Shown: positions 7,007 through 45,701 of the stretch, piece by piece
Position numbering within the stretch: the first letter of the stretch is position 1
Layout of the letters: the number at the start of each line of letters is the position of its first letter
Assembly (NCBI RefSeq): GCF_025612915.1
Contig: NC_069116.1
Span: forward strand, 6,154,123 to 6,218,122
DNA length: 64,000 nucleotides
Source of the DNA: Crassostrea angulata
Lineage: Eukaryota
Reading direction: 5' to 3'
Position numbers and translations under genes: made by a program
Notes under the pieces: generated by a model
The model's database searches: none
The model's input: the letters and a program-made list of their open reading frames with translations, nothing else
Told to the model about the DNA's origin: nothing

Positions 7007-7612
7007 GGAGTTGATTTTATCGATTATTATTTATCTTAAAATCAACGATAGGTTATTTTGCTTAGCAAGTAGTATATAATCTGTATTTGAATTACGCACA
7101 TTTTTATAATATGAATTCTCAGACTTTTCCGACAAATATTCAAAATATTTCAAATATTGTATGGATTCAACCAATAATGAACTCTAGTCTCGTTCAATCA
7201 GATGCTTGGCTGTCTCCGTTAATCTCCGACAAGTAAGAGATACCAGGTCACGTGATAGCTTGACGATGCGACCTCTAAATATAGACTGACTCTCTGCTTG
7301 TCGGAGATGTACGGAGACAGCCAATGGTTGAACGAGACTATATTGAACTCTGGCGTAGGAATACATACGACTGCAAAAAACTTCTAAATTGTTCGTTCTA
7401 TTTAAAATCTGACTATTTCCAAGGTATTTATAAATAAGTTTCCTTTGAAAAAAATGCTTCAGCGTATATTACATCGAATTTATCGATTATGTTCAAGAAC
7501 TAAGTCTTATCAGCGGTGATGATCTGTGCTTAGGTCAAAACTCTGTTTCAGTTTCGGTTTGCCAGAGTAACTGCATAGGAGAGTTGATTAAAATCAACTC
7601 CCAAAAATCAAG
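7007..7612 (+). mobile_element. MITE-like element of about 610 bp, copy 1 of 3. Terminal inverted repeats gggagttgatttta...taaaatcaactccc and a central 45-bp palindrome.
   Basis: Near-identical copies at 32644-33316 (+) and 38701-39340 (-). No coding capacity. Terminal and internal hairpins. Confidence 0.8.
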
Positions 7613-8868
7613 ACTTATTTTTTAAACTCTTTTACACAATGGCATCGGGGGAAACAAGTCTGTTTAGAATTAAAACCAGAATAGTTATAAACATTATGCA
7701 TTTAGTATTCAAATTTTCCATTCCTTTTAGAACCAAAAACTACTTTTACAATAGTTTTAATAACCAGTTAATATCTTGCTTACTGTATATATTAAAATAA
7801 AAATAGATAAAAGATAACTCTTTTTTAGAACAAACAATGCACTTTATGAATAATTTTGTTCATTTTATTATCGTTGGTAGAAAAAAGAACATGTACCAAT
7901 AAATGGAAAAAAAGTGAAATGTTACACGAGATGAGAGAACAATAACACTATCTTTGTTGCAATGCAGTAACTTGTTCAAAATTCACTCTTTTATAGTCCC
8001 CAGACTTCCTTGCATTAGGACGATAGTGGTTCAAAGTCAATAAACTTTGCGTACATATTGAGTGCCTTACATTAGCACACGTGTGATTTGAGTACGATCC
8101 TCATCAGATTCGTCTGAAACTCAGTCACGTAAATCAGGTCACAGAAAAGTTTGATTATACAGATTTGTAGAAAATAATCCATAATTCATGGTCTGTCAGT
8201 TTCACAAACATCAAAAAAAAAAAAAATTAAAAGGCTCAACCCTCAATGCATGAATAGCACTATACTAGTATATCTATCATAAAGAAAAAAAAAGCCACGA
8301 TTACAGCACAATACTTGGGAAGCAATACAAAACACGCCATGCAATAAAAAAGGAAAAAAAATCCACCTGTTATTACTTGAAATGATAATAAAAACCATGC
8401 AGTAAACTAAAATCTCTGTAATAAATATAATGCAAAGACCTTTATTGAGACTTTTTTCAAGGTGCATCACAACAACTACTGTAACCATAAAAAAGTATTG
8501 CAAAAATAAACATTTTGCCTATTTAAAAAATTGCCACCACATGTAGATAAAAAAAAAATAGCCCCAAAACCCTATCCTGGTATTTGAGCATGCCTATCTT
8601 AACCTACCAAATTTTACCAATTAACGTCCTTAAGAAGACATTCTTATAACCCAAAATTTGATGAAAGTAACTTTTGATATGAAAACAAAATGACAATTTA
8701 AAATTGTGTTGAACTAATGCAGTATGAAGGGTCTAAGGGTGCCACTACCTCCCTTTATACAGGATAAGAGGGAATAACCTTTCCATAATCAATCCCATCA
8801 AAATTGTACCAAACAAAGCAATAACAGCATGCTTAAATCAACCTTACAATGTGAAAGCTGTTTGGGGT

Positions 8869-8874
<6 letters not shown>

Positions 8875-8936
<62 letters not shown>
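8875..8936. repeat. (GA)31 microsatellite.
   Basis: Seen directly. Confidence 0.95.
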
Positions 8937-8940
<4 letters not shown>

Positions 8941-9557
8941 GCAAAACGTTATATTAGATTTATATAAACAAAAAATGTTATATTACCTAGATTACATATA
9001 ACTGGTCAGTATAACAATACTTCAAAATACAGAGGTGTAGAAAAGTAAACGCCTGTGAAAATTACGTAAACAGCTAACTACAAAAACACCCACAGCATGC
9101 ACAGTATTGCACTGACTTCCTGTCATCCACTACAGCCAATGAACAGTTACCCAGTAGCATCTTTTCACATTTCTAGAAAAAATTGCTGGTAACTTGAGTA
9201 ATCACTAGATGTAAGATCATTAGAATGAAAACCCCATGCAAAGACCCATTGTAAATATGGGGTAGAAATTTGCTCCATACAAAATACACTACAATACAAA
9301 CAAAAAATATATAGCATGCATTATTCTGGTATTTACAACAGAAATTACGGAGAGAAGTAAAGTCACAAAAAAGATGTTTACATAACAAAAATAGACATGT
9401 TCAAAAGTAGCAAGTTGGACACATACTTCAATCATCTTTGTCACTTCCTTAGCACATCTGCATAACTGGTTCCATGTTATGATCATGAACATGAAAAAAT
9501 ATACAAACATGCATTGATGTACCGTACATGAATGACTGATTTTTATGACACATCACA

Positions 9558-10240
9558 TTACACTGGCTGTAGGCAACTTCCGAACCTCTCAATGAAGTCA
9601 GAGAATTGTTGCTGAGTCAGCATATCCATGTTTAGGGTACGAACTCCGAATTTATTGAGAAAAGAGTCCACCTCATCTAAGCTACCATGGAACGTATCCT
9701 CCAGGTTAATCTGGCTGGAATTCAGTTTGTGAACCAGGGTTTTCAGTGGATTATTGAATCTGTTCTTCCTCTTCTGTCCTCTACGGAACCTTTTTCCACC
9801 ACTGTCGATGATTTCTGAAGCGTGGAGTTCATCAGTATCTGTATCTCTGCTTGTTATACTTTCACTTCTTTTCATCTGAAGGTCTATCTTGTCATCCTCC
9901 TTCAAGGAATCTGAATCACAGCAGCTTGTTGTAGATTTCTTCCCTGTTTCACTGGGACTAACTTTTAATACAGCTTCATTCTGAATTTTCTTTGCTTCAC
10001 CATCACTGTTATCTGAACTGTCAGATAAGACATCATCTGTACCATCATCACGATAAAAATTTTCTTCCCCGTTGACCTGGAACTCCATAACACAAGCCGG
10101 GTGGTTTGTGTGCTTGTCGTAACAGTGCAGGCGTACTTGATGCCGCAGGGGTGCAGCATAATTGCAGTACACGCAACTGAAGCCCTGATTTAATTGGTTC
10201 ATGTCCTTGGGACGTACCACAAAAGATGAAGGTGTGTAGC
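9558..10240 (-). CDS. C2H2 zinc-finger protein, terminal coding exon (GYTPSSFVVRPKDMNQ...one more finger FSCVYCNYAAPLRHQVRLHCYDKH...acidic tail...stop at 9558-9560).
   Basis: Frame of track ORF 9558..10280. Acceptor tttgtttcag at 10241-10243. Phase-1 join recreates a Gly codon (g+gc). The intron 10241-11776 contains a perfect hairpin. Confidence 0.8.
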
Positions 10241-11061
10241 CTGAAACAAACAAATAACGATAACCAGGAAGTAGACTCATGTAATGGAGAGCAGGAAATC
10301 AGTCGCTATAATCCTACTCATCATCTTTACATCCGCATTATGAGGAATGTTTTCACTAAACAGTTGTTCCAGAAAATATGGTTTGCTATAACTCTCATTT
10401 TACAGAGAAAAGAGAATCAAAGTTCAAATTCCCAATTTCGTTTTTGACTACAAGGAGGGTGGGGGGAGTATTTGACCTGAAGGTAACTTTTACACAATAA
10501 TCTAAAGGTTTCTTTCTGATTGGCCCTTGTACTTGTACTAAATATCTCTATAACTGGTAGATACACCAGAATATTTTTTCTATAGAATGATGTGTAATAT
10601 GGCCCCAAAGAAATATACCAAAAAAAAAAAAATAATTTCTCAACTTATTTTGCATGTACTTAATCTTTGTTATAATTACTCTTATACATCCCTTTATAAG
10701 CAAGAAAAAACAATCACATGGGGGATATAAACCATTATTTATGGTAGGGGGCATTGTTTACATTCTGACTTCACAATGTACACAAGGTTTCTGCCATCTT
10801 TAGCAAGTGAGATCTGGAGGAGAGATGGACTTTTATCTCCTCACCAAATTTGAAAGCCATTAAAATATACAAGCACATTTAAGTACATTCTATTCCTTCA
10901 GCTAGTCAATGTATTTTGTCAAAATCTATTTAAATGAGAAAGAAGGAAAATATATCTCACTGCGCTCTAAAAGTTTTATAAACAAAACTAGTGAATATTG
11001 TTTATTTTTACACTGCATTAATTTTGACCTACATTTGTCATAATCTATTACATCAGATTTT

Positions 11062-11125
11062 TTTATTGTGAAAATGTAGGTCAAGTACTGTGCAAGTACT
11101 TGACCTACATTTTCACAATAAAATT
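11062..11125. repeat. Perfect inverted repeat (26-bp arms, 5-bp loop): tattgtgaaaatgtaggtcaagtac tgtgc gtacttgacctacattttcacaata.
   Basis: Seen in sequence. Lies in the zinc-finger gene intron. Confidence 0.9.
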
Positions 11126-11776
11126 TTTTATAAAGGTTATTAAGTTTGATTAAAGTTATGGGAATAATTAGATTCAAATATCATGGAGAAACAATTAATT
11201 CTTACACTGCATGTATAGAGGCCCATAACTGGTCGGCCCACCTTTACTCATTTTTAGAGATTGAAATACTGCAGATTACCTGAATGTTCTCTTGATCAAT
11301 GTTACCTAGGGTTGTCTAATTCCAATAGTCAGAGTACTGACATCAAATCAATGCACAGAACAGGTAAATGAAACACCTGTACACATAGGTGTAACAAGTG
11401 ATCAGGACTCACTAATACAGCCTGGGGAAAACCCCTCTTATACAGACAAATGATTGAATCTATAGATAAGATCCTGTCCTCAATTTAGCTTGCTAGACAT
11501 TTGAGTAGATAAAATTTAAGGTTAAGCATTATTCATCCCTGTTCAATGAAAAACAATATGAGTAGAATGGCATGAACATAAACTTTCACATTATGTTTAT
11601 ATTTTATAGCTTGCCATGGGTTAAACATTGTTTTGTTTTTTTTGTTTTTTTTAGACTGATGTTTTTTCACCTTGACTTGGCAAATAAATTTTTCAGTTTT
11701 AATGTAGTTAAATCAAGCACATACATAATATATTGTCTAACAATATGAAAATAAACTTTTAAACGAGAAGACTCAC

Positions 11777-14700
11777 CAAGACTAGGTGATGATCTAGCTA
11801 TCTGGGAGATCTTCTTGCTCCTCTTCTTTTTCACCACAAAGCCATCCTCTGTTGAGTCCGAGTCCACTGAATCTCCTCCAGGTGTTCGGGGAAACTCCCT
11901 CACACTCTTCTTTAGTGGAACCTTCTCAGACGCTGCTGACGCCACACTCCCAATATCTGAGCCTTTTGGACTACAGGATCTCCGTTTGAAAGCCTTCCTC
12001 AAACTGCTGGTCTCAGGGTCAACATTCAAATCATGTGACATTTCCTCTTGGTCCTTCTGATTGTACATGTCTTCAACAGTTTCATCCTCATCAAAATCTG
12101 GTTTATATGGATCTGTTTTGGCATCAAGTTGTTTTGTAGGTGCTGAACTGTAGTCAAGATCCATATTTTTCTCAGCAAGGTATTTATCCAAATTAACTAA
12201 TGTTCTGGAGATCATTGGGTCTTCATCTTTATGTAGGTCTACAGAGTGTTGCAAAGTCACATACTTATCTGTGGACTGGAATCCACATCTTCCACATAAC
12301 CAGTTACAAATTTTGTGCAAATGCATCATGTGCAGCTCTACCCCTCTTAGTGTTCGCTTCTCTGAAAAGCAAATTGGACAGGACACATTTCCAGTTTCTT
12401 TCTCTAGGGGTGTAGCAGCTTTAGGAACTTTTGCATCATTCTTTGCATCCAGATTTTTGTTTGCTTCCTCATCTTCAGTGTCAGAACTCTGGTCTTCTTT
12501 TTGTTTAAACATCACTACACCACATTTTTTCAAATCCTCCTTAGACATAGCTGCCACAGATTCAATGTCTGCAAAAGTGCGCAACACATAAGGAGTTTCT
12601 TCCTTGTGAACATTCCTTGAATGCCTCAAAGCATCGGATTTATTGTAGGTCACATGACCACAACGCCCGCACTGTAACTTTTTCAGTTTGTGTCTCATTG
12701 ATAGATGTCGCTGCACACCAATATAATTGGAAGCAAATCCACACAGTGGACAGTTGGCTTTCATACTCAGAGGCCTCCGTTTTAACTTAAAATTCTTCTT
12801 AAAAGTCAGCATTCTTGAGTATTTGGATTTCTTTGTTTCTTTTAATTTCTTCTTCGGTAGAAATTCTATGAGATCATGTCCTCTCTGAAGGTCATATGCC
12901 ACACGCACAGCTTTACATATTTTAAAGCCATGTTCTGATGTGCAATGATCTGTTACTTCCCCTAGGTTTCTGTGGACATATTTGCAGTATGAACATTTAT
13001 ACATAAAAACTTTGTGCATGCGTAACAGATGCATTTGCATCCCTTTATGCGTAAGCTTCATGTCACACTGGATACACCGGACATTTTGCTGTCCTTTGAT
13101 TGGATTGACTTTCGGCCTACTTTCCTCTGAAGATTCCTTTTCCTCGTCACCAGATTCACTGTCCTCATGCTCATCGCTTTCTTTATCCATCTCTTTCTCC
13201 TCTTCACCATTCTTCTCTACATCATCTCTTTTGTCAGTTACCTCCTCCACTTCCATAGTTTTACAGAAGGATCTTTTGATGCATGGAGAGGTGCCTGGGT
13301 GATCTGCATAGCAATGTCTTAGACACTCCTGCTTTGACATAGACATGTACATACACAGGTTACATGTGTATTCACACATGTTGTGGACCCAGAAGGCATG
13401 ACGCTTGATCCCAACGGCAGAGTCTCCAGACTGGCCACAATACGGACATTTGTAGTACAGCGGAGATTCTTTTGCTTCTGGTTTTGATGGGACAGGTGGT
13501 TTAGGTGGCTTCTGAAATTCTTCCTCCTCTAATACTTCTCTTCTCCTTCGTTTATATAGATCTGGACTAGGATCAAATGTAGTCTTGAACTTGCGAACAC
13601 GGGGAAGATCCAGAATGTTACTTTCATCAACAATTTCATAATTCTGACCTTTGTTAACCTTTTTGCGACGTCTTTTAAGCTTTTTCTTATTCTGCAATAT
13701 TTTCTTTGCTTTCTGGAAGTTCTTTTTCAGATAGTTGGATGTTTTCATTGTTCCATTCTGCTTTTTTCTACCTCTTCTTCCTGGTTTCCTGTACTCTGGA
13801 CTCTTACTGCCACTTGTGTCTGGAATGATCTTCATGGAGGGTAGTGGATCTATAACATCACTCATATCATCGGAATCAGTTTTTTCTTCCTGACTTGTAC
13901 CTTTCGCTGGTACTGCTCCCACTAATGAACCACTATTTTGCATTGAGACATGGTCATTACTTTTGGCCACTAGAACTCCTTCACCACTATTTGAGGCCTT
14001 TTCATTCTTGGATACAACTTTTGTTGAATCTTCTACATTATTCAGCTGAGATAAATGTTCAGTTTGCTTCCGTGAATTGCTCTCCATCTCTCCAAGAATG
14101 TCACGAATCTTTTTCTTTCCTGAATAAGTTTTCTTCACAATACCCAACTGCACGTCTGAAGGTGATTCATCAATGCTTTCACCGGAAGTTCTGGATTCCA
14201 ATGCCGAGTTACCTATGTCCGACTTCTTAGATGTGAATCTGAATCTCCTTTGGTCACCGAAGAGTTCCTTTGAAGATTTATCATTTTCTTCATCAGAGAC
14301 CCATCTATAATGTTTACATGCATTCACATTTCTTTCCAATTGTCTTTCAGCTTCAATATCTTTTTTGTAAACAAACTTTTGACCCACACAAGCTTGATGA
14401 TTTTTTAAATGACTTGAAAATCCATATTTGTTGCAGGAAGAAAAGCCACAACTTGTACAAGCATATGGTTTGTAGCTTAAATGAAGCATGTAATGCCTTC
14501 GGAAATTTTGAGCAGATTTTGTAACAAATGTACACTTGTCACATTGGAAATAAAACATCTTCACTTTGTTCACTAGAGAAATGTCAATACTGTCATTATC
14601 AACGTATGTAGAGGCGTCTGCTTTCTGTTGGACAGGTGCAGCATCTGGTTTTGACTGCTGGAGTGGTGGAATGCTTGTCTTAGATGGTTGGTTTGATGTA

Positions 14701-16715
14701 ACGGTAGGTGAACCAGCTTGTCTGACTTGTGCTTGAGTGGCAAGTATGACGTGTGGTGCTATAGTGGACGTTGATACTAGCCTTGGTGCGGCTATTGGGC
14801 TGTTAACTAGCTGTTGCATAGTGATGGTGCCAGTTTGCATCAATGATGACGTAGATATAACTGGAACTAGAGAGATGCTTGAAGTGTGGTTTGGTGAGAC
14901 TTGGTGAGTGACAGCTGTTGAACAAGGTGATGATGGGAATGTTCTCTGCATAGTTTGTATAGTGGTGGGGGTCGGAGTAGATGAGGGAAGAACTGGTATG
15001 TTTGGTGCCACTACTCTTGGTGGTAGACCTCCTGACACCTGTGGATGGATCATCGTTCTGACGTTGGAACTTGGCACAAAAGGAACAATGCCCACTGGTA
15101 ACCCTGTGATCAGATGATGACCACTCGATGGAACCTGACTTCTATGAATAACATTAATAGGGTGGTTTGGAGTAGGGAATCTGTTCTGAGCTACACCAGG
15201 AGGATACGCAGTGGCCACAGCAGGAGATATCAACACTTGAGTGAGAGGGGCACTGGAGCTTGACACAGTAGGCTGAAGGTTGAATTGCTGAAATTGCTGA
15301 ATAGCCACAGTATTGAGGTCAACAGAACCTCTAGGAAACTGTCCCACTGCTGGAATACTAGCAGGATTAACTGCAACACCCAGCGCAGGAATCATCAGAG
15401 GAGGCGGAGGACTACACACAACAGTAGTGGTCTTGGTCAGGTTGAACTGAGAAAAGTCCTTTTCTTCCAGGGAATTGTCAGCTTCTTCTTCTGGTACAGT
15501 GTCGGTGCTTGCTTTCTCTGTCAGCTCCTTTCCACATTCCTTTGGCATGATCTCTGTAAAACATACATTATCTGAACTCTTTCCTTTTTCTTCATTTGAG
15601 TTTTGAACTTTGTTCGGCTTATCAATTTTTTCAGCACGATCATTTTTTACATTATCTTCCTCTTCAACTGCAGTCTTCTTTGCATTTGTACTTTGATTCA
15701 GGATATTTTTTTCTAAACACTCTTGTTCTGACGTGGTTCCTTTTTCTATTTCACTTTCCACTTCACTTGTTGTCTTCTCCTCTGAATCATGTGTTTTTTC
15801 TTTAGCAGTAATTCCCAACATTTCCTCTACAGCTGGTTTTCTGGAGTCTTTTACCATTAAATCACTCGGCTCTGCTCTCTTTCCTTCACCTGCATCACTA
15901 TCTTTTTCTACAACTGGTTCTCCACATTTAACTGAAAACACTGAATTTTCTTCCTCACTTTTATCTTTTGATGTATGAATATTCTCTCCACCCACAGTCC
16001 TTTGTTTAATCACTGTAGTGGTCTTTAATCCCTCACCCTTTTCAACTGTGTTTATATTTTTGCTCACTTCTGTCGCTGCCATGTTATCTGCCTGTTCTTT
16101 TTCACAGTCCACTGCTTTGTTAACTGTTTCCCCTCCCTCATCTTTGAGCACTGTTTCTGGGGCAGCCTCCACTTTACAGTCCTCCCTGACAAGACCAACA
16201 CTTTCTTCTTCCTTCTTCTCACCATCTGTTACCATAGAAACCTGTAGATTTTCACCCTCTTTGACTGCTGTGACACTTTCTCCTTTGTCCTTTGCAAGTT
16301 CTGTAACCATACCAGTCTGTATTTCTTTACTAGTTTGGACTGCATTGGCATTTTTGCCTACCTTTTTTCCTGGCTCACTGGGTCCTTCCCTTTCTGTATC
16401 ACTGGAATCTGACAACCCTTCTTCACTACCGGACTCTGAGTTTTCAGACATTGTGTCTTGGAGCTTGTCTTTGTGCTCTTTTACAGGGCTGTTGGCTCTC
16501 TGAATGAGTTTGGATTTTAAATTTCTTCGAATTGCCTGCGAGAAGTCAATGCTGGGTTCGTCCATTTGTTCAATGATGTCATTGTTTTCATTTCTCACCA
16601 CCACTGCAGGAATATTGAGTTTTGTTTGCTTATCAGACACAGAGTTTGATGTGGAATGAGGATCTGTTCCACCATTCTTCTGATTTTCAGCTTTATTTTC
16701 CCCTGTGGTTTCCAT
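11777..16715 (-). CDS. Large C2H2 zinc-finger protein, coding exon 1 (1646 codons, ATG at 16713-16715). 5'UTR continues to about 16776, where a ttttacag acceptor indicates a 5'UTR intron.
   Basis: Track ORF 11667..16715. About 10 widely spaced, mostly paired C2H2 fingers (FQCDKC..H..H, YACTSCGF..H, YKCPYCGQ..H, YTCNLC..H, VRCIQC..H, YKCSYCKY..H, NCPLCGF..H, LQCGRCGH..H, VSCPICF..H, WLCGRCGF..H). Long acidic/Ser-rich and Pro-rich low-complexity stretches. Donor cttgGTGAGT at 11776, phase 1. The last 35 codons of the track ORF are intron read-through. Confidence 0.85.
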
Positions 16716-17229
16716 TCTTGTCTTCAGCTAGATGCCCTCTCAGCTGGTGTAGTTCACATGGTATTTATCTCCTCCTCTGTAAAATATATCAGATATTCAA
16801 TTACAACAAATATCTAAAGGCAGTTGACTGTTATAAGTCCAAATTGTGGTTTTTTGGGTGTTTTTTTTGTTCAGAGAAGTGCAAGCAAGTATACTAATAT
16901 TCCAAAATAAATTAAGCACTAAGCTTGAGATCTCTTTCTGAGTGGATGAAATTAAATATACATGTAAATGTTAATCAATTATAAAATGTATATCAATAAA
17001 TTTGAGTTTTTGCTATACTATTAAATATATCAATTTACAGCAAGAAAAAGAGGGGTGTTGAAAAATGTCTTTTCATATGAGACCATTTTGACAATTAGAC
17101 ATGATTTTAGGAATTTTAAAGTTTATCACTTACAATACTTCATAGTTTCTGTGAACAAAATAAGTTTGCTCTGTTTCAATGAGTGAATATTCACCTAGAT
17201 TTTATCTACCTCTAAATAGTTATGATAAA

Positions 17230-17350
17230 AAGTACCAGTACCTAAAAATTATTAGCCCTTTTTTTAGACGGTTATGGCTATAAATAGCCACGGTCTATTG
17301 CTACGGTCCTGACCGCAAGAGTATTTCTCACGGGGACCCTAGCGGATAAG
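17230..17350 (-). promoter_or_regulatory. Candidate core promoter or non-coding first exon of the zinc-finger gene. A GC-richer, CpG-containing block with the palindromic TATA-like ggctataaatagcc.
   Basis: The only CpG-containing block in the AT-rich region upstream of the ATG exon, which itself begins with a 3' splice acceptor. Inference only. Confidence 0.2.
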
Positions 17351-18855: not shown

Positions 18856-18999
18856 GCTATTAGAGAACCTTTTCTTTGGTTTCAGGGGGGATTTTTTCAC
18901 TATCAGATAACATTATTTACACATGTACGTAAATATCCCCCCTTTTTGTTCTCAAATAATTTTTAACTCGCGAGTACAACTCTATTATGAGCTTTCTTC

Positions 19000-27059: not shown

Positions 27060-27099
<40 letters not shown>

Positions 27100-27583: not shown

Positions 27584-27587
<4 letters not shown>

Positions 27588-27680
<93 letters not shown>
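27588..27680. repeat. (TA)about45 microsatellite. Also (GA)n at 27040-27090 and (TTG)8 plus poly-T at 28170-28215.
   Basis: Seen directly. Track ORFs 27409..27696 and 28098..28400 are translations of these repeats. Confidence 0.95.
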
Positions 27681-27681
<1 letters not shown>

Positions 27682-28229: not shown

Positions 28230-28371
28230 ATTCTGGTTTCGAGTTCTAATAAGAAGGTTATTGGTGCCGAGTTTGCCAGGGGCTGAGTTAACCAGATACC
28301 GTGTTGACTTTGCCTGGACACGCCCCTTCGAGTTTCCTGGTTGTTGTGAAATACCCGTTTTTTCTGTACAG
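28230..28371 (+). promoter_or_regulatory. MVP: Candidate non-coding first exon or promoter of MVP. A GC-rich block ends in the donor tacag|GTAAGC at 28372.
   Basis: The MVP start-codon exon begins with an acceptor at 30364, so an upstream 5'UTR exon must exist. This is the nearest upstream CpG-containing block with a consensus donor. An alternative candidate lies at about 28780-28846. Confidence 0.3.
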
Positions 28372-30223
28372 GTAAGCACGCTTTTGTTTTTTTCTGGCAT
28401 TACAATTTACAACTAATTGTTTCTGACAATGAATATACTCTGCTTTTTAACTGAAATTGTCGAAAGAGTACATGTCATATTATAATATTATAATTGTTAG
28501 TTGTTTTTACATTGCTATGGGGATTTTCAAAATAATGTTCAGGTATAGATTTATAAATTTTGCAATCACTAAGATATTTCTCCTCAATGGTGAAATCGCG
28601 ACAATTTGTTAATGTTTAAATATAGCTGTCTTTATTCATGGAGATTAACCATAAGTAAAATAAATTGGCCGAAGTCAGCAGTTTCATATGCTCTTATATA
28701 TATCCCCTGCCTTTAGTTTGGTCTTTATAGCGGGCACTGCGCAGCTAGTGTAGGAATTTCCTGATTCTAATAACAGCTATGACAGCGTTAAGCTGATATT
28801 TCACAACATTTCAATTTTGAGACTGCAAGTGTTTGAAGTCATCACTGTAAGTATATATATGAATTGAAAATGTACATTGATAACTTTCTGGAAATGAAAT
28901 GATCAAATAAAAATATTTAGCACTTATAGCTGTAAATGTGTAAATGTATATATATGGATTCTTCATGTGTTTGCAAAACCATGATGTAAAATTAAAAAGC
29001 TATTATTTGATCGTGTTGAATGTTTGATTACAGGGAGAAAGGATAAAATTTTTGTTGTGCGAACTTATAAACTTGTATATCAAAGAGGAAATCACAGACT
29101 AATTAATGTATAAGGATGAAACAATAGAAATTGTTTTTAGCCATTTGCTTGATGTGGGAATTTAATTTATATTAATTAGGCTCACATCCAAATTAAGCTT
29201 TCTTTACCTGTACATAGATATATTTACCGAGCATGGTCAGCTAACACAGTTTTCATTACAATTGATAAAAATAATTATGCACACACACAGTAATTACATG
29301 TATATAACTTTTAAGGACATTACACTAGCATGTATATAGTTGCATGAGGGTCAGACTGATTTACCTTTAGATCTTGGATACAGGCCAAGTTGTTGTTATT
29401 AATGTGAAGGAAATGTTATGCAACTTTAGACTTAATTGATTTGTGTTGACTGTTAACATACATGACGTAGATCATTTCCTTTCAATAATCTATATTTTTG
29501 TTGTTTCCTATGAACTTTTAATGAAAGTCTGACATAAAACATGCACGCACATGTACAAGTTGTCAAAAGATTATACCCAGTATTTAAGTGTAGTGTCAAC
29601 ATGTCTCGAGGTTTGGCTCTACACAAGACAGCTCTAGAATTAAATCAACCATTTTTAAATGTCTGCATGAAGGAAACTATGGAAAATATGGGTTTTTTTT
29701 TTCAAATTTAATGTATATAGTTATTAAAATAACTGAAAATTTTCTATATCTCCACAATTAGTGGTCTGCAAGATTGCATCTACAAAAAGAAGTTTTGTGT
29801 TTCAAATATATTTAAAGAATATACAAAATTGATATGTTAAGCCATTGCTAAATATCCTTATATATAGTAAATCTCCTATTGCTACAGATCGAGTGCTTAA
29901 TAAAAAGGTCTCAATATGAATGGTGCTTAGACTAAAAAATTTCCATTCTTTGTAACCTTAGAAAAGCTGTTGTAGTGATCAATTAATTTACATATGCTCG
30001 AATTACATACATTTTTACATTTTAAATGATTTAAAGCTCTCAATGTGAAAATGACATTTACACCGGGCCCACTATAGTGGATATTTCATTCATCTTACAT
30101 TGGTTTGAATGTCATATTTAAAAAACAAATCCATCAAACTATAAATTACACAGAAATGTTAATCTCTTGGATGAGAGCAATTTATTTTTAGAATTTTTAC
30201 ATGTAATTTGGTATTTCAGATGG

Positions 30224-30227
<4 letters not shown>

Positions 30228-30273
<46 letters not shown>

Positions 30274-30290
30274 CTCTCTCTCTCTCTCGT
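30228..30290. repeat. Compound microsatellite (AC)24(TC)9, 70 bp upstream of the MVP start-codon exon.
   Basis: Seen directly. Lies in the 5'UTR intron. Confidence 0.95.
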
Positions 30291-30380
30291 TGATAGTGTA
30301 GTGTGCATCCTATTTATTCTAAGTGTTGATAATCATGCAATTGCCTGTTTCCTTACATTTCAGAGTGAAGAAGAATCAAA

Positions 30381-30511
30381 ATGTCTAAGAATTCCAATGA
30401 CAGTATTTATCGCATCCCCCCTTATTATTATCTCCATGTCCTTGACCAGAATCTCAATGTCACCCGACTGGAGATTGGGCCCCAGACCTTCATCAGACAG
30501 GACAATGAAAG
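30381..30511 (+). CDS. MVP: Major vault protein exon 1, [43 protein letters not shown](R). Exon starts at 30364 after acceptor tttcag.
   Basis: Track ORF 30381. Near-identical to vertebrate MVP N-terminus [35 protein letters not shown]. Donor AAAG|GTATGC, phase 2. Confidence 0.9.
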
Positions 30512-30656
30512 GTATGCACATCAACCAATGTTTAAAAATTGCTTTCCTTACTTCTATAGAACTATTGCAAGAAGTTTTGGTACTAGAGTACAAAATTTAT
30601 TCTCTTGTTTAATACTATCATCATCTGGACTGGACTGTTGTGAAATTATGTTTCAG

Positions 30657-31203
30657 GGTGGTATATGGCCCAGAAAAGATGATCACAGTGCCCCCAAGGC
30701 ACTACTGCATCATTGAAAATCCAGTCGTGAAAGACAAAGAAGGAAAAGTGTTATTTGATGAAAGTGGTCAGTCCAAGCTTAGTCATGCTGACCTGGAGAT
30801 CCGTCTTTCCCAGGAGCCATTCCCTCTATACCCTGGAGAAGTCCTAAAACAGGTTGTGACCCCACTGAAGGTCATTCCAGCCAACTCTGCTCTGAGGTTG
30901 AGGGCGGTGCTGGATTTTGAGGATGACTCTGGGGAGAAGCGGGTGGCTGGAGATGAATGGCTGTTTGAGGGACCAGGGACCTACATCCCACAAAAGGAAG
31001 TGGTTATTGAGGAGACGATTCGAGCTACAGTAATTCGCCCAAATCAGGCCATCCGTCTCCGTGCAAGGAAGGAGACCATTGACAGAGAGGGAAAGGCTCG
31101 AGTTACTGGGGAGGAGTGGATTCATAAGAAAACAGGAGCGTACCTTCCCGGTGCATATGAAGAAGTGGTGGACATTGTCAATGCCTACGTTCTTACAGAG
31201 AAG
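30657..31203 (+). CDS. MVP: MVP exon 2 (182 codons; vault repeats; ...[15 protein letters not shown]...[34 protein letters not shown]).
   Basis: Track ORF 30640..31248 frame. Acceptor tttcag, donor GTGACG. Strong identity to MVP. Confidence 0.9.
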
Positions 31204-31333
31204 GTGACGTCTTTGTTTCTCAATCTATCACAAATCAGTGAACATTAAATTGTGAACATCTAATACATCTTGATATCATGCCGTTATTTGATTTCTAATA
31301 TGGTTTTGAAATTTTACTTTTCAAAATTTTTAG

Positions 31334-31459
31334 AAAGCTTTACACATGAAATCCTTGAGGACATTCAAAGATGGGTTTGGAATTGTAAGGAAGAATGGAG
31401 AGGAATGGTTGATCACAATGAAGGACAATGAGACCCATATCCCTGGAGTTTACGAGGAG
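31334..31459 (+). CDS. MVP: MVP exon 3, KALHMKSLRTFKDGFGIVRKNGEEWLITMKDNETHIPGVYEE.
   Basis: Acceptor tttttag, donor GTAAGA, phase 0/0. Aligns to human [42 protein letters not shown]. Placed by hand. Confidence 0.85.
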
Positions 31460-31790
31460 GTAAGATAAGTTACGAGTTACATATGTACATACATGTAATG
31501 GTACTGGTAAATAGACAATGTTACAGGGAAATTTAAAATATATACAGGAAATTGAAAGATGATTTTCCCACATGGTAATCGTTAGATATATAGCATCATG
31601 TAATCTCTCAAAATTCTATTTTGAAATTAAATTGCCAGTATCAAGTAATTAAATATCCGCTCTGTGAAATGGTCCAGGGCAAAAGCATGTACAAGTTGAA
31701 AATAAACTAAGGAAAACTGCATGGTGCTTTACAATGACTGTTATGAGTGGTAATTGAAACAAGTTGTATTAAAACACAACTTTATTTTAG

Positions 31791-31901
31791 GTTGTTGGAG
31801 TGGTAAACATCACAACCTTGACCTCCAGACAATACTGTGTCATCCTTGACCCCTGTGATGAGTCAGGTCATCCCCAGCTGGGTCGCAAAAAGCTTGTCAA
31901 G
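31791..31901 (+). CDS. MVP: MVP exon 4, [37 protein letters not shown].
   Basis: Acceptor ttattttag, donor GTAGGA. Aligns to [20 protein letters not shown]...GQKRVVK. Confidence 0.85.
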
Positions 31902-32081
31902 GTAGGAATCCAGAAATCATTTTTAAAAATACTTTAAAAATGTGTGTACCTCCAAAGGGTATGTTTAGAGAGTTATGAAATTGAGCAAAAACCCTCTAGC
32001 TTACAGTATTAATCTTTTTCTGTATGTTGTAGCTGTGAAACACAATAAAGAGAATGTCTATCTGGGTTTTTTTGTTGACAG

Positions 32082-32207
32082 GGAGAGCGATCTTTCTTTT
32101 TGCTGCCTGGAGAACGGCTGATGAAGGGAATACAGAATGTCTACGTTCTTGGAGAAGACGAGGGCCTTATCCTCAGAGCCACAGAGTCGTTCAAAGATGA
32201 AGACACG
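32082..32207 (+). CDS. MVP: MVP exon 5, GERSFFLLPGERLMKGIQNVYVLGEDEGLILRATESFKDEDT.
   Basis: Acceptor ttgttgacag, donor GTATGT. Aligns to [33 protein letters not shown]. Confidence 0.85.
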
Positions 32208-32376
32208 GTATGTGTATGCTAAATAAGGTTTAGATCTTGGATACATTGAAATTAACTTAATCCATTTCATGCACATATTTCAAAATTCATAAAGTTTACA
32301 ACAGGAAGAGCAATGTTAGTATCACAGTTGACTGTTTATGACATTAGTAATTAATATATTTGTCTTTGATGATCAG

Positions 32377-32526
32377 AGCGAAGAACTTCGTCCAGGAGAT
32401 AGGTGGATGATTCGTGGCCCCAAGGAGTATGTCCCTCCAGTAGAAGTGGAAGTTCTGATTAAGAGGGTAGCCATTCCTCTGGATGAAAATGAGGGTATCT
32501 ATGTGCGAGACGTCAAGACAGGAAAG
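32377..32526 (+). CDS. MVP: MVP exon 6, [50 protein letters not shown].
   Basis: Track ORF 32338..32538 frame. Acceptor tgatcag, donor GTGTGT. Near-identical to human [18 protein letters not shown]. Confidence 0.9.
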
Positions 32527-32643
32527 GTGTGTATTTAAATTTCCAGATGTTTGAGTGGTAGTTGGATACAGTGACACAAATAGGCTCTCTATTGTCAGGA
32601 AAAATCTGGTACAGTGTAATTGTAATGTATATCAAAGTACTGA

Positions 32644-33316
32644 TGGGAGTTGATTTCATCGATTATTATTTATCTTAAAATCAACAATATGTTATTTTGC
32701 TTGGCAAGTAGTTCATAATCTCTATTTGAATTACGCACATTTTTAAAAAATGGATTACCGGACATTTCCGACAAGAATTTCGAGAAAACCTGTTATGAAT
32801 CATGTTGTGTTATATTAAAAACTAGAATTGATTTCATCAAACTATGTATCTGTATTCGAAATATTTTAAAAAGTGTATGGATCCAACCAATAATGAACTC
32901 TAGTCTCATACAACCAGATGCTCGGCTGTCTCCGTTAATCTCCGACAAGTAAGAGATACCAGGTCACGTGATACGCTTGATGATGCGACCTCTTAATATA
33001 GACTGACTCCCTGCTTGTTGGAGATGTATGGAGACAGCCGATGGTTAAACAAGACTATATTGAACTCTGGCGTAGGAATACATACGACTGCAAAAAACTT
33101 CTAAAATGTTCGTAATATTTAAAATCTGACTATTTCTTAGGTATTTATAAATAAGTTTCCTTTTAAAAAATGCTTCAGCGTACATTACATCAAATTAATT
33201 GATTATTTTCAAGAACTAACTCTTGTCAGCAGTGATGATTTGTGCTTAGGTCCAAACACTGTTTCAGTTTCGGTTTGCTAGAGTAACTGCATAGGAGAGT
33301 TGATTAAAATCAACCC
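32644..33316 (+). mobile_element. MITE-like element, copy 2 of 3, inserted in MVP intron 6.
   Basis: About 90% identical to 7007-7612, including the central palindrome. Confidence 0.8.
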
Positions 33317-33390
33317 CCAATAATGACTGCAACAATCTCATTGTGATTGAAACGTCACTGATTTAATGTTTGTTGATTTGTTGATGTCAG

Positions 33391-33629
33391 GTGCGTGCTG
33401 TCAGAGGAGAAACCTACATGCTGAGTCATGATGAGGAACTCTGGGAAAAAGAGCTCCCTCCTGCGGTGGAGACTTTGCTTCTGGCTGGCAAAGACCCATT
33501 GGCTGACCGTTCGGACCGTTCCAAAGGTGCAGAGAAGTCCGAGAAACGGGACAAGACCAGGGTTGTCACTTTCAGAGTCCCACACAATGCAGCTGTCCAA
33601 ATCTATGATTACAAAGAGAAAAAAGCCAG
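33391..33629 (+). CDS. MVP: MVP exon 7, [24 protein letters not shown]...[23 protein letters not shown](R).
   Basis: Track ORF 33391..33696 frame. Acceptor gatgtcag, donor CAG|GTGCAG, phase 2. Confidence 0.9.
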
Positions 33630-33757
33630 GTGCAGAAACTATCTGAGATTATGTAAATTTGACACAAAATTGGCATGTATATGTTTGGAAGTGTAAAAAT
33701 AGCTCTAATGCTCTTTGACTGACTCACTGAATAAACCATGTTTGTTTACATTTGCAG

Positions 33758-34100
33758 AGTGATCTTTGGACCTGAGCTGGTTATGCTTGGTCCAGATGAA
33801 CAGTTCACACAGCTCTCCCTGTCTGGTGGTAAACCAAAGAAACAAAATGTCATCAAATCTCTGTGTCTCCTTCTGGGCCCCGACTTCTGCACAGACATCA
33901 TCACCGTGGAAACTGCTGATCACGCCAGGCTCTCACTCCAACTGTCCTACAACTGGCACTTCGATATCAAGGACAAAAAGGATGTGGTAGAGGCTGCCAA
34001 GATCTTCAGTGTCCCAGACTTTGTGGGAGATGCTTGCAAAGCCATTGCCTCCAGGGTCAGAGGGGCTGTTGCTCAAGTACAGTTTGACGATTTCCACAAG
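33758..34100 (+). CDS. MVP: MVP exon 8, (R)[28 protein letters not shown]...[32 protein letters not shown].
   Basis: Track ORF 33738..34115 frame. Acceptor tttgcag, donor [29 protein letters not shown] is identical to human. Confidence 0.9.
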
Positions 34101-34204
34101 GTGAGATTTTGTTAAAAAGTGAAGTTGACGACTCTTTGAATTTCCTGTGACCATTTTATGTTGTTGGAAAGTAAATTGTCCCATGTGTCTACATTTTATT
34201 TTAG

Positions 34205-34660
34205 AACTCAGCAAGAATTATCAGATCCTCTGTTTTTGGATTTGATGACAAGGATAGGGTTCGGGAACAATTTAAATTCCCCCAGAATAATCTGTGTATC
34301 ACCAGCATTGACATTCAGTCCGTGGAACCTGTGGACCAGAGGACCAGGGATTCATTGATGAAATCTGTCCAGTTGGCCATTGAAATCACAACCAACTCTC
34401 AGGAGGCTGCTGCCCGCCATGAGGCCGAACGTCTGGAACAAGAGGCCAAAGGTCGTCTGGAGCGTCAAAAGATCTCAGATGAAGCAGAGGCTGAGAAGGC
34501 AAGAAAAGAATTGTTGGAGCTGCAGGCTAACAGTGCTGCAGTGGAGAGCACTGGTCAGGCTAAAGCTGAGGCCCAGAGTCGAGCTGAAGCTGCCAAGATT
34601 GAGGGTGAAGCTGCTGTTGAACAAGCCAAACTCAAAGCCCAGGCCTCGAAAATTGAAGCC
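34205..34660 (+). CDS. MVP: MVP exon 9 (152 codons; shoulder and start of the cap-helix coiled coil; ...[51 protein letters not shown]...).
   Basis: Track ORF 34322..34684 frame. Acceptor ttattttag, donor GTAAGT. Confidence 0.9.
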
Positions 34661-34844
34661 GTAAGTACCCAAACTATAGTCTGAATGATAGTTCAATATC
34701 CTTTAGGATGAATGATACGATGCATTTTAATATACATGTAACATACATATTGTGAATTGTTAAACAATTGTAATTTGCTTATAGTAGGACAAGTTGTGTA
34801 TGTGAATATATGTCCAGGTCTTTACACAAATATAATGCTTTCAG

Positions 34845-35189
34845 GAATCTGAACTTGAGAGACTTACAAGTGCCAGGGAGGCTGAGCTCAAATTTCTCCG
34901 CGAACAGAACGAAATGGAGCTCAGCAAAAGCCGAGAAATTGCTGAAATTGAGACCTCCAAATTCAAGAGTCAAGTGGATGCCATTGGAGCTTCCACACTC
35001 CAAGCCATTGCTACTGCTGGGCCAGAGATGCAGGTACGTCTCCTGTCTGCTCTGGGCCTCAAGTCCACACTTATTACCGATGGGAACAGTCCAATCAATC
35101 TCTTCAATACCGCCAATGGTATCATAGGGGGAATGGTTCCTGCCAAAAGATCCCGAAGATCCGCTCCAGAGTCTGATGACGACGATTAG
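34845..35189 (+). CDS. MVP: MVP terminal exon (...[39 protein letters not shown]...SDDDD, stop at 35187-35189).
   Basis: Track ORF ending at 35189. Acceptor gctttcag. [32 protein letters not shown] is conserved with human MVP. Assembled protein is about 857 aa. Confidence 0.9.
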
Positions 35190-35492
35190 AAGTTGACATT
35201 GTGTTGACAGCTTAAGAGTGCAATTTTTTATTTGTGTGTATGACATGTGCTTATTGTGTTTAGACATGAAAATTTAACATATATAATTATCCCTGATGAG
35301 AATGAAAAGGTAACATATCAAGGCAGCAGGGTTGGAGATATGCCTGTGTTTGACAAAGTATATGCATGGTATCCATGAAAGCAATTTGTTTATGTTTCTA
35401 TATCTATTTAAACCAGTACATGTATATCCCTTTGAACTGTGATATCAATTGTTCATGTAGATACCAGGACTTGGACAACAAATATTTTGTAA

Positions 35493-35498
35493 AATAAA
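35493..35498 (+). terminator. MVP: Candidate poly(A) signal AATAAA for MVP, about 300 nt after the stop.
   Basis: First canonical hexamer downstream of the stop. Weakly supported. Confidence 0.3.
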
Positions 35499-36339
35499 CA
35501 CTGACCTTGTACATTTAGAAAGTGCAACGTGTTTGGTACTCTCTGCACATCTTGGAGTCATGGTTTAAACATAGTTTAATTAATGCACTTTTTGGACATG
35601 TTGTTACTAGTTTTGTATCCACTTTTTTCTGTTGAATATAGTTTACACTTGTTCTATTTTCCGTTGTAGTTTCTAATATTTAATTTTGTATTTGATTTAA
35701 GTTCATTTCTAATATAATAAAAGATAATGCAAAAATAATGTTCTTGTTTGTTCTTAGCTTTGGGTGCAGAGAATTAATCAAAACCTCTTTTTTACAATAG
35801 GTCAACATTTTTGTGCTGGTCAGGGCTACTGTTAGGACTTTGGCTTAGTTTGTTAATTTTGTGACTCTGTGGGTGAATGGAATCAAGATTTACATGTATT
35901 AACATTATTTTAAAAATATATTCGCTGTACCTTGCCTGAAGCATTTAACTTAATCGTAATTTCACATAACATGTAGATTCAAACCGCAATATGTCTCGTA
36001 TAAAGTAACATTTTTTCATGAGTGATGTGGCTTATCCGTTTTTAACTGATGCCCATTTCTTACATATAACATGTATATTTCTTGTTATGACTTTCAAACC
36101 TGACTGAATCATATCATAATTTGCGGATATGGGACACATTTCTTTTGGCCCTTCTATTTTATTTGATTTGTCAGATGCCCCATTTACTGTAGTGTATGTA
36201 AGAACAATGTAAGAAAATCAACTATAATCAAAAAAAAAAATAGCGTTTGTGTATCATTTACAATAAGCTTATTCATATTTTGATATGTAAATAATTGGTA
36301 TTAATCACTGAAATCCATTTGTGAAAATTACTGTAAACC

Positions 36340-36960
36340 AACTTTATTCGCGTGGTAGATATTTTCGCGAGGTTTTACGAGATACTCGCAATCACGGTAT
36401 TTCTCGCCAGGAACCAGTTATATATGTCTCCGATATTTTATTGTTATTATCCATATTCGATTTAAACTTCATTGATGTTGCTTGTAGTTCCAGTAGGTAA
36501 TGTTTTTATTGACCTAACGGTCATGGCGTTATTCCTTATTTACACTTGGTGATCTTGGCTCTTTTCTTCGGAGCTCAGTGGCTGTAATGGCCAAACTTAC
36601 GTAAAATGTCTCCATGACATGTTCATTAGCAACCTTGTTAAGTTGTAAATTTCGTATTTACAGCCACCCAGTAAAAATTTACAACTTGACAACTTGTACG
36701 AGCTGTTGCAAAATCGCGAAATAAAGTCGTCGCGAACAAAAGTGTGTTTACGGTATTTACAAAATTTACAGTTGGTCTTGGATAATTACGAAAAGGAGTT
36801 TAAAATGTTGTATTGAGTTAAAACGTTTGTTTTACCTTCACTTTCCTAAAACTATGATGTAGAGCACATGGTGGTCGATCTCTGCATGTAAAGTGCGCGC
36901 TGTCTCCGAAATCGTCCAGTCTCCATCCTCAGTATTGTCTCACACTGTAACTGAGCCATT
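36340..36960. promoter_or_regulatory. CpG-enriched island-like block (about 30 CpG in 620 bp) between MVP and the glycosyltransferase gene. Candidate promoter or non-coding first exon.
   Basis: CpG density far above the surrounding AT-rich DNA. The glycosyltransferase coding exon begins with an acceptor, so it needs an upstream exon. Confidence 0.25.
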
Positions 36961-37329
36961 GCTGAAGAACATTATAAGGCATGGTTAGAACCCCTAGTGT
37001 AGATCCTTTCCATAGATACGTCATTCTGGGGTTTTTCCTTAATTCTATTTTTTTTTTGCAGATAATGAGATATCATAATTCAGTTCCGATGACTTATATC
37101 AATTTAGAGAAGATGGGTGAATAAGGCGTGTAATATGCCCATATGAGGAATGAATAGATACTGCAAAATTAAAATATCATTAAATCTGATACCAAAAAAA
37201 AAAATAATAATAATTAAAAACAATGTATATTAAACGTAACATCGGTTTGTAACCCTTAAGCTTATTTTAAATACTTGCAATAGGTTTATTTAAACTGGGC
37301 TATGCGTGTCAAAACCTCCAAATAGTGTC

Positions 37330-37850
37330 ATTTTTATAACTTCAATCCCTTTTCTTTTATAGAGTGGGTCTGAGCTCCATATTTTTGTCATAGTCTAAAT
37401 GCGGTTTGATGGAATTAAAACCGATTTCAATCAACAAAAATGTGGAGAGATGACCCACTATACTTTAAAAATATCATTTTTATCCCAACAATTGAACGTT
37501 TTAGAAAAATAACACAAGTCCGTAAATTCGTGGCAAACGTCTCATATAGCATTTAACCAACGCAATTTGTTGTGAATGAAATGGCTCAGTGATTAGAGCA
37601 CCAGACACTATGTAACTTTATAGAACTTGGGTTTTTAGGTTGTGGGTTCGATACCACCAAACCTTCAGGATTTATTTTTTTCTTATCGTTTTTTTTAAAT
37701 TTTCAAACTGAATAAAGTTATAAATAACCCTTTTGTAAACTTATATTATAACATATCAAATATATTTAATTGAAAAATGTTAAATTTGAAATTGTATTTT
37801 ACGACTAAACTAAATGGGCAGTTGCGCCATCTTACTCCCCCATCTTCTTT
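37330..37850 (+). mobile_element. tRNA-derived SINE-like repeat, copy 1, with A-box (tggctcagtgattagagc) and B-box (gggttcgatacc).
   Basis: Internal Pol III promoter boxes. About 80% similar to the second copy at 39370-39740. Confidence 0.55.
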
Positions 37851-38700
37851 TATACGTACTGATTGATTAAAATATTTTCTCATGAATCTAGATTTTTTAT
37901 TTTTTTAATTATGTACGTGCTAACATTTTTTGTTCAAACCTTGAATTTGTATTATGTCTTAGAAAATCTTTTCTCTCCCTTTTATATTCGAGAAAAACTA
38001 AGTGGATGATTAGAATTCTCATGAAGCACTCTACCAAAATCATAAAATTCATGGCTTCTGGATCAATTGTGGTGTCAATATGACTATAATACAGTGACCG
38101 TTGACTAATGTGTTTTATAAATAACATGGTGGGTTAAGATGACTGGCTGCTGACAGGCAGTGTCCATGCGCGAACAGATTAAGGGGGCGGGGGTCTGGGC
38201 TCCTGGAAAATTCAAATTTAAATTTATATCGTAAAACTACCCCAAAAATGCCTCGGACACTCGGCAAACTTAATTAGATATCCCTCGTTCCCCCTCCCTT
38301 AAAATTTTTTTATGGATCTGCGCATGGTACCTATAATTTTTACGACTAAAAAAATTGTTGCGGGCAGCTCCTTGAAAATACAATTTCCTATGATCGAGCA
38401 AACTAATTGAGTAAATCCGTCTTTTAAAAAAATCGCCCCCCCCCCCCGCTCCTCATAGAATTTAGTCTGCAAATAACGATAGATTTTGCTGATAGATTCA
38501 CATATGCAAACTATAATTTGCATTCGTTATCTATGGTTAAGAGTTGTTAATCATAGTTTCACGCTTTTCAGATAAACTATAATGTTTTGCAATCGCAAAT
38601 GGTTCTTAATTTCAGTGTTGATTTTTATCCTATAGATATGTTCAATATTTGGAATATGTTGACTTAAACAGGCGTATACGTATCAAAACCTGTTATTTTT

Positions 38701-39340
38701 GGGAGTTGATTTTAATCAACTATCCTATGCAGTTACTCAGACAAACCGAAAGTGAAACAGTGTTTGGACCTCAGCACAAATCATCGCTGCTGACAAGACT
38801 TAGTTCTTGAAAATAATTGATAAATTCGAAGTATTGTATGCTAAAGCATTGTTTTTCAAGGAAACTTATTTATAAATACCTTGAAAATGGTCAGATTTCA
38901 AATGGTACGAACAATTTAGATATTTTTTGTAGTCGTATGTATTCCTACTCCAGAGTTCAATATAGTCTCGTTCAACTCGACGCTCGGCTGTCTCCTTTAA
39001 TCTCCGACAAGCAGAGAGTCTCTCTTGCTTGTTGGAGATTTACAGTGTCAGCCGAGCGTTTGGTTGAACGAGACTAGAGTTCAATATTGCTTGGATCCAT
39101 ACAATTTTCGAGAAATATTTCTATTACTGATATATAGTTTGATTGAAATAATTTTATCTTTAAATATTATTTAACATGATTCATATGGGGGTTTCTCGAC
39201 ATTCTTGTCGAAAAAGTCCAAAAATTCATATTATAAAAATGTGCGTAATTCAAATACAAATTAGAAACTACATGTACTTGTCATGCAAAATAACATATAA
39301 TTGATTTTAAAATTAATAAACATCGACAAAATCAACTCCC
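38701..39340 (-). mobile_element. MITE-like element, copy 3 of 3 (reverse orientation), directly abutting SINE-like copy 2.
   Basis: Reverse complement of the 7007-7612 family, including the inverted termini gggagttgatttta... Confidence 0.8.
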
Positions 39341-39369
39341 GTCAGTTCTTCAGTACTTTGATTTATAAC

Positions 39370-42913: not shown

Positions 42914-42962
<49 letters not shown>

Positions 42963-45699: not shown

Positions 45700-45701
45700 T
45701 G

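Follow-up and report, generated by a model that had tools for sequence, protein, structure and literature searches.

The Helitron-type elements of animals include a class whose non-autonomous members are built around asymmetric repeats and hairpins. Helitron2 elements carry asymmetric terminal inverted repeats (TIRs) of 8-15 bp, the 5' TIR lying in a hairpin and the 3' TIR lying upstream of a 3' hairpin; hairpins are thus found at both ends, and insertion occurs after TTTT without a target-site duplication (TSD) (PMC3627910). Elements of the HINE/DINE-1 type are described with subterminal inverted repeats (subTIRs) of 12-15 bp, a 5' inverted repeat (IR) and a stem-loop at the 3' side; they target TT and end in a variable number of Ts (PMC4067079). 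The Helitron2/Helentron type (HLE2) is described with TIRs of 12-16 nt, a stem-loop that follows the right repeat, and T-T insertion (PMC11417382). HINE-type elements were at first mis-filed as MITEs (miniature inverted-repeat transposable elements) (PMC2374699), which was later corrected (PMC4067079). Helitron-type elements form the most abundant transposable element (TE) superfamily in the C. gigas assembly, where many carry a subTIR and an IR (PMC7992393). Here we analyzed a 64,000-nt stretch of Crassostrea angulata contig NC_069116.1 (positions 6,154,123 to 6,218,122; hereafter the window), in which a preliminary description had recognized a three-copy MITE family with hairpin termini and a central palindrome. 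Our analysis suggests that the three copies, c1 to c3, probably represent a non-autonomous HLE2 element of HINE-like type, whose functional strand would be opposite to that of the preliminary description, and that the MITE is the palindrome which this element carries.

Alignment and local blastn, supplemented for c1 by end alignments, confirmed three homologous copies at about the positions first proposed: c1 at 6987..7610 (functional strand minus), c2 at 32631..33326 (minus, antisense to the major vault protein (MVP) gene) and c3 at 38693..39364 (plus, inside a repeat designated X2). The spans first given for them were about right in location, but homology continues past both of their ends, by 13-23 nt on the left (ATCAAAGTACTG and 1-11 further bases before GGGAG) and by about 8 nt on the right (AAAAAT.A after CTCCC). 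In c1, the interval 6987-7602 starts with the 3' tail and stops at the first base of the 5' repeat; in c3 this base is 38701 and the 3' tail occupies 39341-39364. The copies share more than 570 aligned nt and stop abruptly at the same bases, with pairwise identities over aligned columns of 91.3% (c1-c2), 87.0% (c1-c3) and 84.3% (c2-c3) and Kimura two-parameter distances of 0.09-0.18. A 77-nt block found in c2 and c3 is missing from c1, and in c3 the palindrome loop is shorter by about 48 nt. High identity between the copies had been read as a sign of recent activity; the identity is moderate (9-18% divergence) and therefore provides no evidence of it. The surroundings of the copies are unrelated (intergenic sequence, an MVP intron and the inside of repeat X, respectively), and because the borders are sharp in all three of these contexts we consider the element mobile. 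The outer element forms a family of non-autonomous DNA elements that is dispersed and has no coding capacity.

When each copy was searched against the entire window by local blastn, no fourth copy or fragment was returned. The family is nevertheless larger than the three copies originally proposed, as further copies were found at other loci in public reads and in two UniProt models, bringing the number of distinct copies documented to at least nine. Four relatives from public reads (L018, L019, L029 and L030) align with the 5' part of the element over approximately 170-280 nt at 77-86% identity. L018, L029 and L030 derive from runs SRR327417, SRR13616528 and ERR13868545, respectively, whereas L019, which carries both element ends, represents a locus recovered from at least 10 sequencing runs.

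On its functional strand, the element reads from 5' to 3' as an oligo-T tract approximating TCATTTTT, a GGGAGTTGATTTT hairpin closed by AATCAACTCTCC, about 600 nt of non-coding body, the repeat AAAATCAACTCCC, a short stem-loop and a T-rich end. The 13-nt inverted repeats GGGAGTTGATTTT and AAAATCAACTCCC, in length within the 11-18 nt expected of HLE2, match at 13 of 13 positions in c1 and c3 and at 11 of 13 in c2, and GGGAGTTGATTTT with 0-1 mismatch occurs in the window only at the six copy ends (7006, 7590, 32645, 33306, 38701 and 39328). The hairpin termini of the preliminary description are real, since both ends fold with stems of 8-10 bp (z about -3 for c1). In the 5' hairpin of c1, located by repeat search and motif search at 7578..7602 on the minus strand (DNA fold z -2.8 to -3.4), the 13-nt 5' repeat GGGAGTTGATTTT at 7590-7602 pairs with the adjoining complementary IR AATCAACTCTCC; the equivalents are 33294-33318 in c2 and 38701-38725 in c3. 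The complementary IR begins 0-4 nt downstream of the 5' repeat, the fold has an energy of -4.5 to -6.9 kcal/mol (z about -3), and the 5' repeat is kept in the relatives L018, L019 and L029. With a host-derived TCATTTTT motif, as suggested by the uninterrupted site described below, this repeat lies 0 nt from the element end; with an element-derived motif it lies 8 nt from it.

The other end is organized differently. The 3' subterminal inverted repeat of c1 and the complementary arm upstream of it, recognized by repeat search, folding and motif search, span 7006..7046 on the minus strand, the repeat itself (AAAATCAACTCCC on that strand) occupying 7006-7018 and the arm 7037-7046; the corresponding intervals are 32645-32685 in c2 and 39301-39340 in c3. 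This repeat is subterminal, with 13-23 nt of tail beyond it that are conserved in c1, c2, c3 and L019. In c1 the tail occupies 6987..7005 on the minus strand and reads GTACTTCAGTACTTTGATT, and end alignment including L019 gave the consensus CCC-N-(TCAGTACT)x2-TTGAT, the T-rich end being TTGAT plus 0-2 T. By alignment and folding, its two AGTACT units make up the tail stem-loop GTAC-TTCA-GTAC, which c1 and L019 possess; the c2 tail (32631-32644) has lost one unit, and in the c3 tail (39341-39364), for which no hairpin is predicted, one is mutated. Tandem Repeats Finder (TRF) detected no tandem array inside the copies, the sole repeat being the 8-mer present once or twice in the 3' tail.

A T-rich 8-mer approximating TCATTTTT adjoins the 5' repeat in six elements and is also present in an uninterrupted paralogous site. 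It lies at 7603-7610 in c1 (TGATTTTT on the minus strand), 33319-33326 in c2 (TCATTATT), 38693-38700 in c3 (TTATTTTT), 581-588 in L019 (CACTTTTT) and 1080-1087 in L029 (TCATAATT), while the T-rich flank of L018 is GCATTTT at 425-431; in the uninterrupted site, X1, it lies at 37328-37335. Because it is present in X1, the 8-mer is probably target sequence. It also resembles the 3' end of the element itself, TTGATTT.

Repeat X1 (37262..37850, plus strand) is the uninterrupted paralogue of the site occupied by c3, which local alignment and a chimeric reconstruction placed between a left part of X2 upstream of c3 (38636..38700, plus strand) and a right part at 39362-39742. Copy 3 had been described as abutting a tRNA-derived SINE-like (short interspersed element-like) repeat, consistent with nested insertion; the nesting holds, but c3 interrupts repeat X rather than merely adjoining it. 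On one side of c3, 380 nt match X1 at 82-86%, and on the other side 55 nt align to X1 with a local alignment score of 50, compared with 18.6 +/- 2.4 (maximum 29) for shuffled sequences. X1 reads GTCATTTTT/ATAAC at 37327-37340 (here and below a slash marks a junction), and X2 reads GTTATTTTT and TTTATAAC on the two sides of c3; removal of c3 with five Ts kept gives GTTATTTTT/ATAAC, which aligns to GTCATTTTTATAAC of X1. In the best reconstruction, the insertion junction of c3 thus lies in or after the T5 run, without a TSD. Flank alignment and this empty-site reconstruction revealed no TSD of fixed length at c1, c2 or c3. TSD models of 2-8 bp directly outside GGGAG...CTCCC, as well as TTA, TTT and TA, were tried, and none is valid in all three copies. 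X1 and X2 are oriented alike, with a spacing of about 2 kb, and could be a TE or a local duplication; X1 contains tRNA-like A-box and B-box strings at approximately 37600-37690, about 340 nt inside the repeat, whereas a tRNA-derived SINE would have its boxes in a 5' head, and neither ARAGORN nor Rfam called a tRNA or RNA family in repeat X.

The asymmetric repeats, the 5' hairpin, the tail stem-loop of c1 and L019 and the oligo-T site without a TSD are the reasons for which we regard assignment to a non-autonomous, HINE-like HLE2 element as the probable one. By rolling-circle chemistry, a Rep/helicase (HUH) transposase supplied by an autonomous partner elsewhere would nick beside the 5' hairpin, one strand would be peeled off up to the 3' signals, and the peeled strand would reinsert after an oligo-T tract without duplicating the target. 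Before the amplification that yielded c1 to c3, their ancestor gained an unrelated small TIR element in the middle of its body.

Several observations count against this assignment. Neither an autonomous partner nor a Rep/helicase open reading frame (ORF) lies in the window that would link the element to a transposase. The stem of the 3' stem-loop has only 4-6 bp, and the structure is lost in c3 and altered in c2; the 3' TIR stands 13-23 nt from the end compared with the 20-60 nt reported, and an additional hairpin surrounds it. TRF found neither central tandem repeats nor a microsatellite in the copies. In HLE2 elements a 5' microsatellite and/or central tandem repeats are frequent, not obligatory. 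Of the two ends, the one proposed as 3' varies more, and Helitron 3' ends are usually better conserved than 5' ends (PMC11417382). Furthermore, the empty-site evidence consists of one paralogue pair that is approximately 76-84% identical, and a 9-nt indel lies beside the X1/X2 junction. An alternative junction of equal score would make CAGTACTTTGAT host-derived, but is contradicted by c1, c2 and L019. Lastly, L019 has CTTTTT at both flanks, which is compatible with a short TSD consisting of T only.

The closest described elements are the Cg_HINE or 'Helitron-N*_CGi' elements of the Pacific oyster, probably the same host (PMC7492417, PMC7992393), for which we used copies in the window together with PMC7492417. 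Two non-autonomous Helentron elements of Cg_HINE type are present, inverted relative to each other, at 42815-45750 (plus strand, with a 166-bp satellite-like array at 43049-44291) and at 54790-56400 (minus strand, with a 166-bp satellite-like array at 55134-56299). Their 5' end reads TTTTTA-GCTCACCTGAGC-CAAAG-GCTCAAGTGAGC and comprises subTIR, IR and GTCY microsatellite, and their 3' end reads GCTCAGGTGAGC-GATGT-GGCCCCTTGGCC-TCTTGTT and comprises subTIR, GGCC..GGCC palindrome and TCTTGTT; the order of parts is the same as in c1 to c3, and the sequences are different. The likeness extends at the 5' end to the oligo-T boundary, a subTIR of 11-13 nt and the adjoining complementary IR, at the 3' end to a subTIR with a short palindrome behind it, as in c1, and to a T-rich end, and also to T-rich insertion sites without a TSD. 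In contrast, the subTIR is GCTCACCTGAGC in Cg_HINE and GGGAGTTGATTTT in c1 to c3, which lack the GTCY microsatellite and the central 166-bp tandem array, possess an extra hairpin at the 3' subTIR and a shorter 3' tail, and carry a nested palindromic MITE instead of satellite repeats.

Beyond oysters, non-autonomous Helitron2 elements such as Helitron-1N1_CRe (PMC3627910) likewise have asymmetric terminal inverted repeats, a hairpin at each end and a 5' repeat located at the 5' end or next to it; they also insert after TTTT without a TSD and are about 650 bp long. They come from another phylum and are likened by layout, and in c1 to c3, in contrast, the 3' repeat is only 13-23 nt from the end. 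DINE-1/HINE elements of Drosophila and mites (PMC2374699, PMC4067079) share the 13-bp subTIRs, the 5' IR, a 3' stem-loop like that of c1, a T-rich target, a variable number of terminal Ts and a past annotation as MITEs, whereas c1 to c3 have no homologue of the DINE-1 core, no microsatellite and no central repeats, and the conserved 5' part of the oyster relatives, about 270 nt long, is their own.

Other classes of element would account for some of these features. Read in the orientation of the preliminary description, all three copies begin A/TCAAAG and finish hairpin-CCCAAAAA/T, with a 20-25 nt palindrome 5 nt from the right end, which would suit a non-autonomous canonical Helitron (HLE1) starting with TC after a host A, bearing a hairpin at its 3' end and inserting between A and T; the hairpin end is moreover the better conserved end, and canonical Helitrons with subTIRs have been reported from C. 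gigas as possible intermediates (PMC7992393). We nevertheless consider this unlikely, as there is no CTRR/CTAG 3' terminus, and the AAAAAT.A motif also occurs in the uninterrupted X1 and so is probably target rather than element. HLE1 elements end in CTRR before a host T and lack TIRs, their single palindrome of 16-20 nt standing approximately 11 nt from the 3' end, whereas palindromes and repeats are present here at both ends; perfect 13-nt inverted repeats together with a hairpin at each end are a signature of Helitron2 rather than of HLE1 (PMC3627910). An intermediate between Helitron1 and Helitron2 with a sequence-specific target, showing A/TC...hairpin.../T on one strand and Helitron2-type asymmetric repeats on the other, is a slim prospect. 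Here the mirroring of the 3' end TTGATTT by the 8-mer TCATTTTT would suggest that one Rep nicking motif defines the target as well as the 5' junction and the 3' end of the donor; if true genome-wide, this would provide a simple rule, open to testing, for how HLE2 ends are recognized in an animal.

A cut-and-paste TIR MITE, mobilized by a DDE transposase recognizing the 13-nt GGGAGTTGATTTT repeats, would explain the perfect inverted repeats near both ends, and size and absence of coding capacity are typical of MITEs. This reading is very unlikely given that, in four elements, conserved sequence continues for 13-23 nt past one repeat, that c1 to c3 have no TSD of fixed length and that the flanks at the other repeat share a T-rich motif instead of being variable. 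The absence of a TSD, the asymmetric ends and the short A-run at one end (in the preliminary orientation) would be expected of an unclassified non-TIR DNA element, either tyrosine-recombinase/Crypton-like or of another HUH system, or of a retroposon/SINE. We give such an origin equally little credence: neither a variable-length poly-A or simple-repeat tail nor variable-length flanking TSDs are present, the element has no pol III boxes and no tRNA/7SL/5S head, terminal direct repeats of Crypton type were not seen, and the combination of features fits HLE2. It is hardly conceivable that the copies are non-mobile, arising from segmental duplication or chance similarity, even though the window holds only three of them and the region around c3 is locally duplicated, since they share 84-91% identity over more than 570 nt with abrupt ends at the same bases, more copies exist at unrelated loci in public reads and in two UniProt models, and c3 interrupts a repeat whose paralogue is intact.

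The palindrome at the center of the copies has a separate origin. As first described it is real, with arms of approximately 47-51 nt that are 82-93% complementary and a DNA folding energy of -44 to -50 kcal/mol (z about -10). The insert comprises 7186..7339 in c1 (strand not assigned), 32902..33056 in c2 and, in a short-loop version, 38964..39075 in c3, and is bordered by direct repeats at 7174-7185 and 7340-7351, at 32890-32901 and 33057-33068, and at 38952-38963 and 39076-39087, respectively. These repeats, AGAGTTCAATAT (on the minus strand in c1), flank the insert without spacing and agree at 12 of 12 positions in c3 and at 11 of 12 in c1 and c2. The insert is 112-154 nt long, with terminal arms of about 50 nt (AGTCTCGTTCAAC...GTTGAACGAGACT) and a TSD of 10-12 bp. 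The relatives L018, L029 and L030 read ...AGTTCAATAT/TGCTTGG... at the same place, with a single copy of the site and no palindrome. Because of the flanking duplication and this uninterrupted single site, the central palindrome is a separate nested TIR element that was inserted in an ancestor before c1 to c3 arose. The label MITE thus fits the inner palindrome only, but not the outer element, which has no terminal TIRs or TSD.

In its non-coding TIRs of about 50 nt, its length of 112-154 nt, its 10-12 bp duplication and the uninterrupted site in relatives, the inner palindrome is like Mutator-like (MULE)/foldback MITEs; its 12-bp TSD is, in contrast, at or past the 9-11 bp usual for Mutator. 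Local blastn found no stand-alone copy of the inner palindrome in the window, and Rfam over the window found no miRNA or other RNA family in it. The possibility that the palindrome is a selected structure was also considered and rejected, its arms being better read as the TIRs of the nested insert: one position is compensated among the three copies while several pairs are broken, and because the arm differences are one compensated and several uncompensated we see no sign of selection on the fold. Additionally, L019 carries at 840-985 a different insert of about 145 nt, flanked by GCTAAAG and GCCAAAG, within a few nt of the position of the palindrome in c1 to c3. The element core may be an insertion hot spot.

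In agreement with the preliminary description, c2 lies inside an intron of the MVP gene, as the ORFs of the flanking exons carry Pfam Vault domains. The intron extends over 32527..33390 on the plus strand, with GT at 32527 and AG at 33389-33390, and c2 makes up about 80% of it. The exon ORFs flanking c2 have identical counterparts on Logan contigs of several runs, and eight contigs carry the exon ORF adjoining c2. The left junction of c2 is identical in four aligned Logan contigs from four runs (L001 and L015-L017), all of which stop 43-48 nt inside c2, a pattern that fits a fixed or common insertion whose interior would be repeated in the genome. No c2-empty allele was seen among the public contigs carrying the exon before c2. 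An allele look-up of the ORFs flanking c1 and c3 and of the exon after c2 returned no public gene index record.

At the protein level, translated pieces of the element, including the palindromic insert, occur in the UniProt Magallana gigas models K1PK97_MAGGI and K1QQ71_MAGGI. These stretches are likely TE-derived exons (exonizations) or gene-model artefacts. By content alone, the two models, the Vault-domain ORFs and the 166-bp arrays with Cg_HINE-type ends would suggest an oyster source, probably Magallana (Crassostrea) gigas. An exhaustive HMMER search with a profile built from a spurious open frame in the element gave 17 clusters at E <= 0.001, the loci retrieved through it having the 5' part of the element in common, and a word-indexed protein search with the element-ORF profile returned only K1PK97_MAGGI; the same type of search with a 1352-aa concatenate of all open frames gave no match, and the exact K1PK97 sequence had no public gene index record. 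Exact-pattern scans of viral, metagenome and prokaryote contigs yielded only 19-mer chance matches without further similarity.

The class of element described here is known and very abundant in oysters, and the assignment to HLE2 implies no new biology. Calling HLE2-type elements MITEs distorts TE classification and models of TE spread, however, and such elements dominate oyster genomes. In addition, c2 bears on MVP gene structure, and two predicted M. gigas proteins incorporate parts of other copies.

The window contains several further features. A 340-aa single-exon ORF lies at 41643-42665 on the plus strand; its 337-aa product from the ATG at 41652 has no exact public gene index record. An uninterrupted ORF of 1682 aa, rich in C2H2-like zinc-finger motifs, occupies 11667-16715 on the minus strand. 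Repetitive sequences comprise a 20-bp tandem array of 13 copies at 1447-1710, a 77-bp array of 5.5 copies at 62205-62629, dispersed and tandem 177-bp units at 50462-53130, and the simple repeats (AT)48 at 27584-27680 and (AG)31 at 8873-8934.

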